A stretch of DNA of 64,000 nucleotides from Candidatus Aldehydirespirator sp. (lineage in GTDB: Bacteria > Actinomycetota > Acidimicrobiia > Acidimicrobiales > Aldehydirespiratoraceae): positions 58,358-122,357 of the forward strand of contig CBDHCM010000005.1 of the NCBI GenBank assembly GCA_965261105.1. Reading direction: 5' to 3'. Positions 670-3,159 of the stretch are shown one piece after another. Made by a program: the position numbers and the translations under genes. Each line of letters starts with the position of its first letter. The first letter of the stretch is position 1. The notes beneath the pieces are model-generated. The model saw nothing but the letters and a program-made list of their open reading frames with translations, was not told where the DNA came from and searched no databases.

Positions 670-1479
670 CTCCAGCCGGTAGCAGTCGGAGCGGACGACG
701 GAGGCAACGACATCGGCTGAAGCACTCCGACGACAAAGGGCCGCCTTGGGCGGTTCAGCGACCACGCGGGCCGCAACGACGTTGAACGCCGAGCAGGCCT
801 CGAAACGGGTAACGCGGAAGCCGACCCGCCGGAATAACGGGGAAGGCTGCCAGCGGTCGGGAAGCGAGCGACGCGAGCACCGACCGGTTCCGCCGGGGTA
901 ATGGCGGCGGCACGTGTGGAAGAGGGGATTGGTCGCAACACGGGAAGCCCTGCCGGTGGCGTGGCACGCGCCAACGGACAGCCCGCGAGGGTCAGGTCGG
1001 GCCGGTCAGGGTGGCGGAGAGGTCCGTAGGTACCGAGGAAGCCGGGTAATGCCGGCGGAGGGAAGGGACCTCAGGTGGAAGCGATGGCGAAAGGGAGCAG
1101 GCTCACGGGAGTGGCCGAACGGCCTATCACCCCGGAGATGAGCAGGAATGCCGGATGTCATCACATGCACAAGCGAAGGGGACGACCCGAGCGGTCGCCG
1201 TCGCCAGGGCGTCAACAGGCCTGACGACGCACCGGCCGGCCGGCTCAAGGGTGCGAGCCTGGTGCCAGGGCTCGCGAGACCCGTCCGCTGGTCGTGACCG
1301 GGAAGCCCGTGCGCGAGCCGCATGATTCCACTGGAGAGCCCGGTGCCGGAAATCGGCCCGCCGGGTTCGGAGAGCGGGGGGAGGAAACGTACCCACGGGA
1401 CTCGGCCTGCGGCCCGATTGCGAAAGCGCCGGATAAGCCACCGACCCCCTACCGGCTACGCGCCTCTCCTCGACTCTAC
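670..1479 (+). ncRNA. ORF-less group II intron (IIB-like), 5' end displaced by IS110
   Basis: Domain III 1019-1072 (GAGGTCCGTAGGTACCGAGGAAGCCGGGTAATGCCGGCGGAGGGAAGGGACCTC); domain V 1336-1368 GAGCCCGGTGCCGGAAATCGGCCCGCCGGGTTC with AGC triad; domain VI ending CGACTCTAC at 1479; domain IV only about 250 nt, no RT ORF. Confidence 0.9.
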
Positions 1480-3159
1480 TGAAGCTCGATATTCGGGATC
1501 GACAGGGCGTGGCGGGACGACGAACAGGGTTTCGCCATCGTCATTTGGGGGCTGCGAGGGGGTTGCGGGGCGAGCCATGGGGCGATGGCCGGGCGCGGTG
1601 AGCCCGAGTGTCGACAGCTTCTCCTGGAGACGGTCCGTATCGTCCCCGAGGGAGCTTGGTGCGGCGGGACGGATGGGCTATCCGGCACGTGCGCCGAGTG
1701 CGAGGGCGATGCGCTGCCATGCCTCGCGCTGCGGCGTGGCCCGCGGCAGATGCAGAACGAGCCGGCGGACCGAGCGGACGACCTGGATCCCGAGCTTGAG
1801 CAATCGGTCGCGTAGCCACGTCACCTGGGTGCGGGCGCACGCGGTGCCCGCCGCCCGCAGCCGCAGCTCCTGCATCAGCACGTAGGCTGCGGCCGTCAGC
1901 AAGACGCGCAGTTGGTTGGCCCAGAAGCGGCAGCAGCTCGTGCGGTCGATCTGCAGGCCGTCGAGCAACTCCTTGATCCGGTTCTCGATGTCCCCCCGCG
2001 CACAGTAGACCTTCTCGTAGATGAAACGCGGCGTCTGGCGCAGGTTCGTCACCACGAAGCGCGGGTTGTCCCGCGGCGCACGTTCGCCGAGGCGGACCAC
2101 TTCGGCTTTGATCACCACCCGGCGCTCATGGCCCCAGATGCGGGCGGCGTAGCGGGTGTCGGTATAGACGTGTGCGGTCTCGCCACTGACCTCGCTCTGC
2201 GTGCGCGCCGTCTGCAGCGCGGATTCGGCATGCCGCTCCAAAACCGCATTTTTCGCCATCGCCACCACGTAGTCGAGCCGGGGCTCCGCATCCAGGAAAT
2301 CGAAGACCTCCGGGGTCGCAAAGCCCCCGTCGAGCCGAACGAGAAACCGCGCCCGCGGAAACGCCGCCCGCAGCAGCGGGAGCAGCCGACACAGCAGCCC
2401 GAGGGTCCCGTCGGCGGCCACTGCGTTGCCGGGCCGCAGCACCGCCGCGCACAGATACTGCTCCGCCTCGCGGTCGAAGCTCAGAAACCCGAGCAGCGGC
2501 AGATAACACCAGCCGCCATAGTGCCCGTTGAAGAACGTGAGCTGCTGGGCGCCGTGCGTCAGGTCGTCGGTCGGATCCAGATCGATGGTGACGAGCCGCG
2601 CCCGCCCGTGCAGGCGGCGCCGATGCCGCTCGATGACGCACGCCGCCAACTCGCGCCCCATCCGGTAGAGCGCGGTGCGGGTCGCGCCGTTCTCGAACCG
2701 CGAGATCGTAGGTTGCGACGCCAAGGGCGCGCCGGACACCGGGTCCCGCCCGAGCAGCAGCTTGTGGATGGGGTCGTCGGCCAAGTGGTCGGCATCGTTG
2801 CCATCGGGATGACCGCACGCGATGCCGAAGATCCGCTGGCCGATCAGATCCGCGAACGTGTGCCGAATCTTCTCCGCGGCGCGCTTGTCGGCCAGACACT
2901 GGGCGAACGCCTTGACCAAGCCGTACACGCGCTCGGCCGCCTTGAGCAGGACGGCGCCGCCGTCGGAACTCGCGTGTTCCTGGTTGAACGTGGCGACGAG
3001 GGGCTTGTCGAACAGATCCGGGAACAGAACAGTCTGTGGTATCGTGTGAGGCGTCACGAAGGGGTCTCCGTTGTGGCTAAAACGTTGTGTGCACTACGTT
3101 TGTACCACACGGAGGCTCCTGTGTCTCCCCCTCAACCGCACCTTCACGCATAATCCGGG
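1480..3159 (-). mobile_element. IS1380 family element copy 1 (right TIR split by intron)
   Basis: Left TIR CCCGGATTATGCGTGAAG at 3159 next to TTAA; right end stops at TGAAG, lacking the outer 13 bp CCCGCATTATTCC seen in copies at 15790 and 44733. Confidence 0.93.
1678..3057 (-). CDS. IS1380 family transposase (DDE_Tnp_1_4), 459 aa
   Basis: SSDGG, LASQPTISRFEN, IDLDPTDD, VRLDGGF, YCARGDIENRIKE motifs. Confidence 0.95.
   Translation of the reverse strand: MTPHTIPQTVLFPDLFDKPLVATFNQEHASSDGGAVLLKAAERVYGLVKAFAQCLADKRAAEKIRHTFADLIGQRIFGIACGHPDGNDADHLADDPIHKLLLGRDPVSGAPLASQPTISRFENGATRTALYRMGRELAACVIERHRRRLHGRARLVTIDLDPTDDLTHGAQQLTFFNGHYGGWCYLPLLGFLSFDREAEQYLCAAVLRPGNAVAADGTLGLLCRLLPLLRAAFPRARFLVRLDGGFATPEVFDFLDAEPRLDYVVAMAKNAVLERHAESALQTARTQSEVSGETAHVYTDTRYAARIWGHERRVVIKAEVVRLGERAPRDNPRFVVTNLRQTPRFIYEKVYCARGDIENRIKELLDGLQIDRTSCCRFWANQLRVLLTAAAYVLMQELRLRAAGTACARTQVTWLRDRLLKLGIQVVRSVRRLVLHLPRATPQREAWQRIALALGARAG

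Follow-up and report, generated by a model that had tools for sequence, protein, structure and literature searches.

How does an intron that encodes no reverse transcriptase (RT) come to lie within the end of a transposon, and what has split it there? The question is raised by a 64,000-nucleotide (nt) stretch of DNA (hereafter the window), positions 58358–122357 of contig C5 (CBDHCM010000005.1) in G000, the assembly GCA_965261105.1 of Candidatus Aldehydirespirator sp., which opens within a group II intron seated in the right end of an IS1380-family insertion sequence (IS). A first-pass annotation, made from the letters of the window, had proposed a non-autonomous retroelement specialised on a transposon end. 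Here we report that the intron is class F-like, multicopy and devoid of an RT open reading frame (ORF), and that its three exon-binding sites (EBS1, EBS2 and EBS3) all match the IS1380 right end. It very likely reached its position after base 13 of the right inverted repeat by retrohoming, using EBS1, EBS2 and EBS3 pairing and a borrowed RT; an IS1111 element, probably RNA-guided, then broke this copy within its alpha motif and probably disabled the ribozyme.

The intron and its host transposon comprise the following features (window coordinates, except where C5 is named; IBS, intron-binding site):

C5:57343–57355, outside the window: displaced outer 13 bp of the IS1380 right repeat (IBS2 and IBS1), with the flank CTAA
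C5:57356–57413: first 58 nt of the intron, left of the IS1111 element
670–1479, + strand: intron nt 59–868 (remainder of domain I, domains II–III, ORF-less domain IV, domains V and VI), whose first three bases complete the split alpha motif
806–810, + strand: EBS2 (CGGGT), pairing with the last flank base and the first four inverted-repeat bases
831–837, + strand: EBS1 (GGAATAA), 7/7 complementary to inverted-repeat positions 7–13
866–872, + strand: alpha-prime, partner of the alpha motif split by IS1111
901, + strand: EBS3 (A), pairing with T, the first base of the 3′ exon
1334–1369, + strand: domain V, with an AGC triad, a 5-nt loop and a 2-nt bulge
1370–1477, + strand: domain VI, long, with a bulged branch A at 1473 (from the fold)
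1480–3159, − strand: IS1380 minus the outer 13 bp of its right end, with an intact transposase ORF at 1678–3057 and a left inverted repeat ending at 3159, then TTAA
15778–15790, − strand: unoccupied IS1380 right end (empty target)
44733–44745, + strand: unoccupied IS1380 right end (empty target)

The intron totals 868 nt, with only short ORF remnants left, and uninterrupted 868-nt copies occur in another genome, G041, a sponge-type Vicinamibacterales genome that has much DNA in common with C5. Its boundaries are GTGCG and AC. About 1 kb left of the window, at C5:57356, GTGCG follows a 5′ exon ending in ACCCGCATTATTCC, and the 3′ end at 1479 is followed by TGAAGCTCGATATTC; excising the intron restores flanks that equal an empty IS1380 end. 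The first-pass annotation had foretold this exon and a GTGYG boundary, and its placements of the 3′ end, EBS1, EBS2 and the intact right ends at 44733 (+) and 15790 (−) agree with ours. It erred in starting the intron at 670, since the first 58 nt lie on the far side of the IS110-family element, which is inside domain I, and in assuming a TTAA flank at the split end. The genome reads CTAA there, an inexact duplicate, with one mismatch, of the TTAA at the other end; 4-bp target duplications are exact in 18 of the 21 empty IS1380 copies with both flanks read. The transposase is identified by NF033539 (346 bits). A third intact right end lies elsewhere on C5, on which one of the four right ends matching the target is occupied. 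The motif ACCCG-NN-TTATTCC occurs twice in the window and in none of 100 shuffles.

The group II fold proposed earlier is upheld by Rfam RF00029 (domains V–VI), which matches 1334–1450 with 43.7 bits against a cut-off of 40; domain V contains one non-standard pair, present in a sister intron too. In the fold of a natural uninterrupted copy, the hairpin-loop position claimed for EBS1 holds for six of its seven bases (probability of being unpaired ~1.0) but not for the first G, which is mostly paired (0.17). EBS2 was not predicted to be unpaired in that same fold. The 5-nt domain V loop, the long domain VI and the alpha-prime on a domain I stem-loop, traits listed for class F/IIF introns in the relevant passages of PMC3753933, are all present, a class F-like placement compatible with either g2–g4 or basal F.

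G041 provides a census of target use. It contains ~25 intron copies, 99–100% identical, and the insertion point is constant, after base 13 of the right inverted repeat. Among ~30 located 5′ ends, 24 lie at one 13-mer, 4 are tandem junctions, 1 is at a rearranged site and 1 is ectopic, inside an IS66 transposase gene, where EBS pairing is mostly retained. The IBS1 pattern is matched at 62 places, comprising the 24 with an intron, 36 empty IS ends and 2 unrelated sites, which gives an occupancy of 24/60 right ends; as the first-pass annotation implied, the copies do not sit mostly at unrelated sites. Among the first 100 of 158 repeat matches, none of 54 IS1380 left ends is occupied, nor is any of three variant ends that differ in the last base. 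Left ends mismatch EBS1 at two positions, which would be why they are skipped. Accumulation in IS ends through mere tolerance and site abundance, under a relaxed specificity, would account for the ectopic copy and for the many different targets among close relatives, and passages of PMC4615759 describe another intron, RmInt2, as relaxed; the concentration on one 13-mer and the unused left and variant ends make such an origin highly unlikely. Specialisation on a transposon end therefore holds for this EBS allele, but it was overstated for its kin: in the family of the G041 intron, relatives at 88–93% identity use ISAzo13, IS1634 and IS1182/IS5-like ends and other sites, and some use IS1380 right or left ends.

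Three further observations come from G041. Every IS1380 right end within 1.0–3.09 Mb of its contig C2 is empty, and the occupied ends cluster elsewhere. Near position 433093 of that contig (locus L112), a 26-nt fragment of the intron 5′ region lies within the displaced outer inverted repeat. At loci L279–L290, an intron in an IS1380 end has been struck in domain V by another RT intron, itself broken near YADD, and a 491-residue RT is present in ~18 copies.

Pairing was then assessed across relatives, which were collected with an EBS-neutral pattern (at least 70 loci, species genomes) and an EBS2 pattern (at least 119 loci, metagenomes). From 197 rows, 72 were removed (65 without a 5′ exon, 4 without a loop and 3 tandem), leaving 125 rows and 116 distinct intron–exon pairs. 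Over these pairs, EBS1–IBS1 pairing averages 5.23 of 6 positions, against 3.20 ± 0.10 in 2,000 shuffles (maximum, 3.59), and within the 66 introns whose EBS2 reads MGGGY (M, A or C; Y, C or T), Watson–Crick pairing is 5.06 against 3.37 shuffled. The match of EBS1 and EBS2 to the IS1380 repeat, noted in the first pass, is thus backed by covariation between EBS and exon, and EBS3 can be added to it: the column at 901 is Watson–Crick with the exon in 60/72 cases, and the next best column in 37. An IS-end-like exon, TA[AG]-CC at 11–13 nt from the splice site, accompanies 58 of the 66 MGGGY introns and none of the 50 others, a contrast that is partly built in for the CCY/CC match, as the MGGGY set was gathered by its EBS2 pattern, and not for the TA part. 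TA also occurs at −17 to −14 in 34 of 43 exons of the G041 family. Perhaps the RT protein recognises this TA, a preference that would bias insertion towards IS ends whose target duplications contain it.

Members of this lineage are either RT-bearing (~1930–2010 nt) or ORF-less (~640–870 nt), and both kinds occupy the same spot in the ends of IS1380 elements and of miniature inverted-repeat transposable elements (MITEs) in several phyla; named hosts are Acidobacteriota, Planctomycetota and Alphaproteobacteria. The relatives' RTs are 45–53% identical to that of Ni.ha.I1. In a quick tree, users of IS ends fail to make up a single clade (11 changes, against 16.3 on shuffling). The family of the G041 intron has matches in 55/104 genomes, including many full-length ORF-less copies at 88–99% identity, and several targets are common to an RT-bearing and an ORF-less version. 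Viral contigs yielded one intron locus. Identity to ORF-less and RT-bearing relatives (15 and 8 copies) is 0.93 and 0.90, respectively, in the 5′ half, 0.92 and 0.52 in domain IV, and 0.94 and 0.70 at the 3′ end. With so little identity to RT-bearing sisters in domain IV (52%) and at the 3′ end (70%), the intron is not a simple deletion derivative of a co-resident RT intron, and one chimeric copy (L113) is found in G041.

Two side observations concern these relatives. In G016:C101 (L021, 1828–4663), an ORF-less and an RT-bearing copy with identical EBS stand in tandem, at the type of end that, at L373, adjoins an IS1634 transposase. Within the same intron class, a proteobacterial clade with AGGAC in the EBS2 region (L029, L030, L039, L056, L061, L075, L088, L096 and others) has 5′ exons with an AATGTC-like motif, which we take to be possibly a dispersed palindromic repeat.

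For the host transposon, it is plausible that the intron immobilises the IS1380 copies it enters; 36 of the 60 right ends in G041 remain free of it. Because the intron sits downstream of the transposase gene and on its opposite strand, splicing is unable to repair the DNA end, and the ORF of the transposase is left whole. In a tree of IS copies (13 occupied and 23 empty), the occupied ones lie scattered among the empty ones, the sole groupings being among copies that run into nested insertions. This scatter fits independent homing into resident copies, with no sign of joint transposition. Had the intron instead invaded an IS1380 end only once or on a few occasions, and thereafter spread passively, with the transposon or by segmental duplication, the IS would not be immobilised and homing would be rare. 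All canonical copies being at one site would suit such a history, and the mosaic haplotypes of the IS weaken its tree; ISEcp1, of the IS1380 family, is known to use substitute right ends. However, occupied copies form no clades, the tandem arrays and the ectopic copy that keeps EBS pairing need intron-driven insertion, and the EBS tracks the exon across lineages. We therefore consider passive spread quite improbable.

The interruption of the window copy involves the following features:

1–669, − strand: in-window part of an IS1111-type IS110 element (1,613 bp in total, C5:57414–59026), between intron nt 58 and 59 in domain I
from 582, − strand, running off the window: IS1111 transposase (DEDD)
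7 nt and 3 nt from the ends of the element: sub-terminal inverted repeats
C5:57789–57824: two predicted guide stretches in the 503-nt non-coding end downstream of the gene

The form without IS1111 exists, as contigs from four metagenome runs join both sides of the intron directly. The insertion falls in the middle of the alpha motif (intron nt 55–61). In an alignment of 117 sequences, alpha pairs with alpha-prime (nt 255–261) in 718 of 786 cells, with compensatory C–G to T–A swaps, whereas controls slid by one pair in 26% and 32%; a hairpin-based version gave 4.91 against 4.93 shuffled, with inconsistent hairpin calling, and the alignment was used instead. The pairing is intact in the uninterrupted copies and split by IS1111 in the window copy. 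Alpha–alpha-prime is an essential folding motif of group II introns, and because of this role the window copy has probably lost ribozyme function.

The element has the traits of the IS1111 group, namely a DEDD transposase, sub-terminal repeats, a long downstream non-coding end and two predicted guides that covary with the target. The guide stretches, of 10 nt and 9 nt, flank a small hairpin and match the two strands of the alpha site. Over 11 distinct elements, the two guides match their targets at 6.5 and 6.9 of 8, whereas 2,000 shuffles reached at most 6.1 and 6.7; a plain fold of the non-coding end was not significantly stable (z = −1.54). All five near-identical full IS1111 copies in G041 lie at alpha, one of them in the sister intron. 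The IS1111–alpha junction was counted 17 times, in 6/104 genomes; the 11 readable 5′ exons of the introns concerned include 9 different ones. At the left junction (window 669 and G000:C5:57414), TG replaces the CG of the target and of the predicted donor guide in every alpha-site copy seen.

These matches indicate that IS1111 was probably guided to alpha by its own predicted guide RNA. A single chance strike on alpha, later copied among introns by recombination, would leave the guide-like matches coincidental or leftover; recombination between intron 5′ halves does occur, as the chimera L113 attests, and one scored element (L410) matches its target poorly, with 4 and 4 of 8. We judge that origin unlikely, because elements 86–100% identical occupy alpha in 6 genomes and 9 intron target types, and because two IS1111 copies in the same genome, G041, 92% identical to those at alpha, have different guides and a different target that matches them.

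We lean, with less assurance than for the homing itself, towards a wider interpretation in which three tiers of RNA-programmed parasites are chained together. The IS1111 guide, matched to the conserved alpha of class F ribozymes, would hunt and disable the whole intron class regardless of the introns' targets. The intron would be a modular ORF-less hitch-hiker that takes its target-recognition domains from RT-bearing relatives, this allele capping IS1380 right ends.

In the mechanism that we envisage for retrohoming, transcription coming in from neighbouring DNA would cross the intron, downstream of the transposase gene and on its opposite strand, and the resulting RNA would be spliced with the help of a sister intron's RT. 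The resulting ribonucleoprotein would reverse-splice into another right end, passing over left ends, and re-entry at an occupied site would generate head-to-tail arrays; tandem arrays are seen in G041. The split DNA end would fail in cis while the transposase ORF remained intact. New targets would be acquired by exchange of 5′ halves: domains I–III are common to RT-encoding sisters, and domains IV–VI form a separate ORF-less lineage. RNA-guided insertion of IS1111 at alpha, and then loss of folding, would end the career of a copy such as that in the window.

Several observations weigh against this account. No intact helper RT was seen with the intron, G000 containing only distant RTs (26–31% identity), and the 88%-identical sister intron in G041 was interrupted in 9/9 copies inspected, by nested elements, some of them inner introns that might splice out. 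Of the cognate RT-encoding intron sought by the first-pass annotation, no intact copy was found in G000 or among those nine. The covariation set lost 72 of its 197 rows because the exon or the loop could not be read or because the copies were tandem, and the MGGGY contrast is in part built in, as described above. Of the 24 loci at which a partner inverted repeat was sought, only 9 had one, three of these being full IS1380 elements and the other six MITEs of ~170–210 bp; many of the remaining loci are short contigs, but the long L076, L153 and L200 had none. With three further loci that adjoin IS1380 transposases, real IS or MITE ends are confirmed at 12 loci. The relatives' RTs group with Ni.ha.I1 (SH-aLRT 99) in a quick tree that drew a long-branch warning and in which a single reference was labelled class F. 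From the 24 loci supplied to the guide test, 11 distinct elements were scored. Occupied IS copies with two readable flanks are mismatched in 2/2 cases, against 3/21 empty ones, so rearrangement has touched them, although these numbers are small. In contigs from two RNA runs, sequence other than IS1380 follows near-identical intron 3′ ends; RNA-run contigs contain the intron, and the spliced form is identical to the empty DNA site.

The helper in G041 is likely to be the 88%-identical sister intron, which would supply the RT by analogy with the TeI3/TeI4 pair described in passages of PMC2882425, and intact RTs are present in related genomes. No RT-bearing intron with the identical EBS pair was found among the 30 inspected loci of the G041 family with CGGG in EBS2; one had an RT, with a different EBS1. 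G000 itself is uninformative on the helper, because C5 probably derives from a Vicinamibacterales symbiont, as a plasmid-like or misbinned piece. C5 carries ~8 IS1380 copies, a RepA and a weak relaxase match, no DNA was common to C5 and the 4.6-Mb contig C6 of G000 at E < 1e-20, and the sequencing runs that hold the intron are, where named, sponge metagenomes. A related intron was present in only 1 of 40 other genomes related to G000.

The RTs on C6 (8 matches in G000) were rejected as helpers, since they belong to an unrelated intron family. That family (for example, at C6 positions 2934854, 2981295, 2995690, 3718916 and 4167986; L001–L016) includes, besides the RT matches, ORF-less derivatives of ~640 nt from start to domain V. 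It enters one base inside the end of a ~160-bp repeat with TG...CA ends, of which 11/17 end-motif sites are occupied, and a three-copy tandem occurs. Elsewhere in the window, at 52873–55153 (− strand), neighbouring genes for a TIR-SAVED protein and an AAA ATPase may form a defence locus based on nucleotide signalling.

Homing into IS ends is a known strategy. In passages of PMC4615759 and PMC5894124, RmInt2 of Sinorhizobium meliloti GR4 retrohomes into the inverted repeats of ISRm17 and forms head-to-tail copies. The two systems share EBS/IBS-directed homing into IS inverted repeats at a fixed point, multicopy spread, head-to-tail copies and the lack of an endonuclease domain. RmInt2, however, is a class D intron whose own RT shares 29% identity with that of the present intron's relatives, and its host belongs to the ISNCY family (locus checked), not IS1380. 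Moreover, RmInt2 uses both ends of its IS, whereas the present intron uses the right end only, although relatives in other genomes do use left ends. The habit thus looks convergent.

A precedent for spread without an RT is TeI3 of Thermosynechococcus elongatus, whose ORF-less copies multiply through the RTs of related introns, with trans-mobilisation demonstrated there, according to the passages concerned in PMC2882425. In both cases an intron with no RT ORF has recently become multicopy, EBS divergence has opened new targets, including an IS in TeI3, and helper ORFs are interrupted by inner introns. Whereas TeI3 arose from TeI4 by one clean deletion in domain IV, domains IV–VI are here 52–70% identical to RT-bearing sisters, against 90% for domains I–III, and trans-mobilisation of the present intron is inferred. 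Table S2 of PMC3552965 assigns Ni.ha.I1 to class F/g3. The present intron resembles the class F/IIF introns Ni.ha.I1, Ge.ur.I1 and Pe.th.I2, as treated in passages of PMC3753933 and PMC3552965, in its 5-nt domain V loop, long domain VI and alpha-prime on a small domain I stem-loop. It differs in having no ORF, and IS-end homing is absent from the passages on class F in those two papers.

The interrupting element has its counterparts in the seek-RNA or bridge-RNA elements of the IS1111 group, of which passages of PMC11187229 and PMC11208160 name IS4321/IS5075 (targeting Tn21 repeats), ISKpn4/ISPst6 (attC) and ISPa11 (repetitive extragenic palindromic, or REP, sequences). Shared features are the DEDD transposase, the sub-terminal repeats, the long downstream non-coding end, two short guides, one per target strand, and a conserved multicopy site; the target here is, by contrast, the alpha tertiary-pairing motif of a group II ribozyme. 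Neither paper uses the word 'intron' in its main text, and in the open-licence literature we found no report of IS1380-end homing or of IS1111 elements aimed at introns, which does not establish absence from print. The guide-targeted IS1111 is thus the fresher part of the system.

Collectively, IS-end homing, documented for one class D intron, is seen here to recur in a class F lineage across phyla, in RT-bearing and ORF-less forms, with natural compensatory changes and 40% occupancy in one genome, which makes the question of whether introns cap transposon spread directly testable. The IS1111 element adds a new class of natural bridge-RNA or seek-RNA target, an essential ribozyme motif, with naturally reprogrammed sisters as controls. 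For IS-rich symbiont genomes, the system offers a compact model of how mobile elements keep one another in check.

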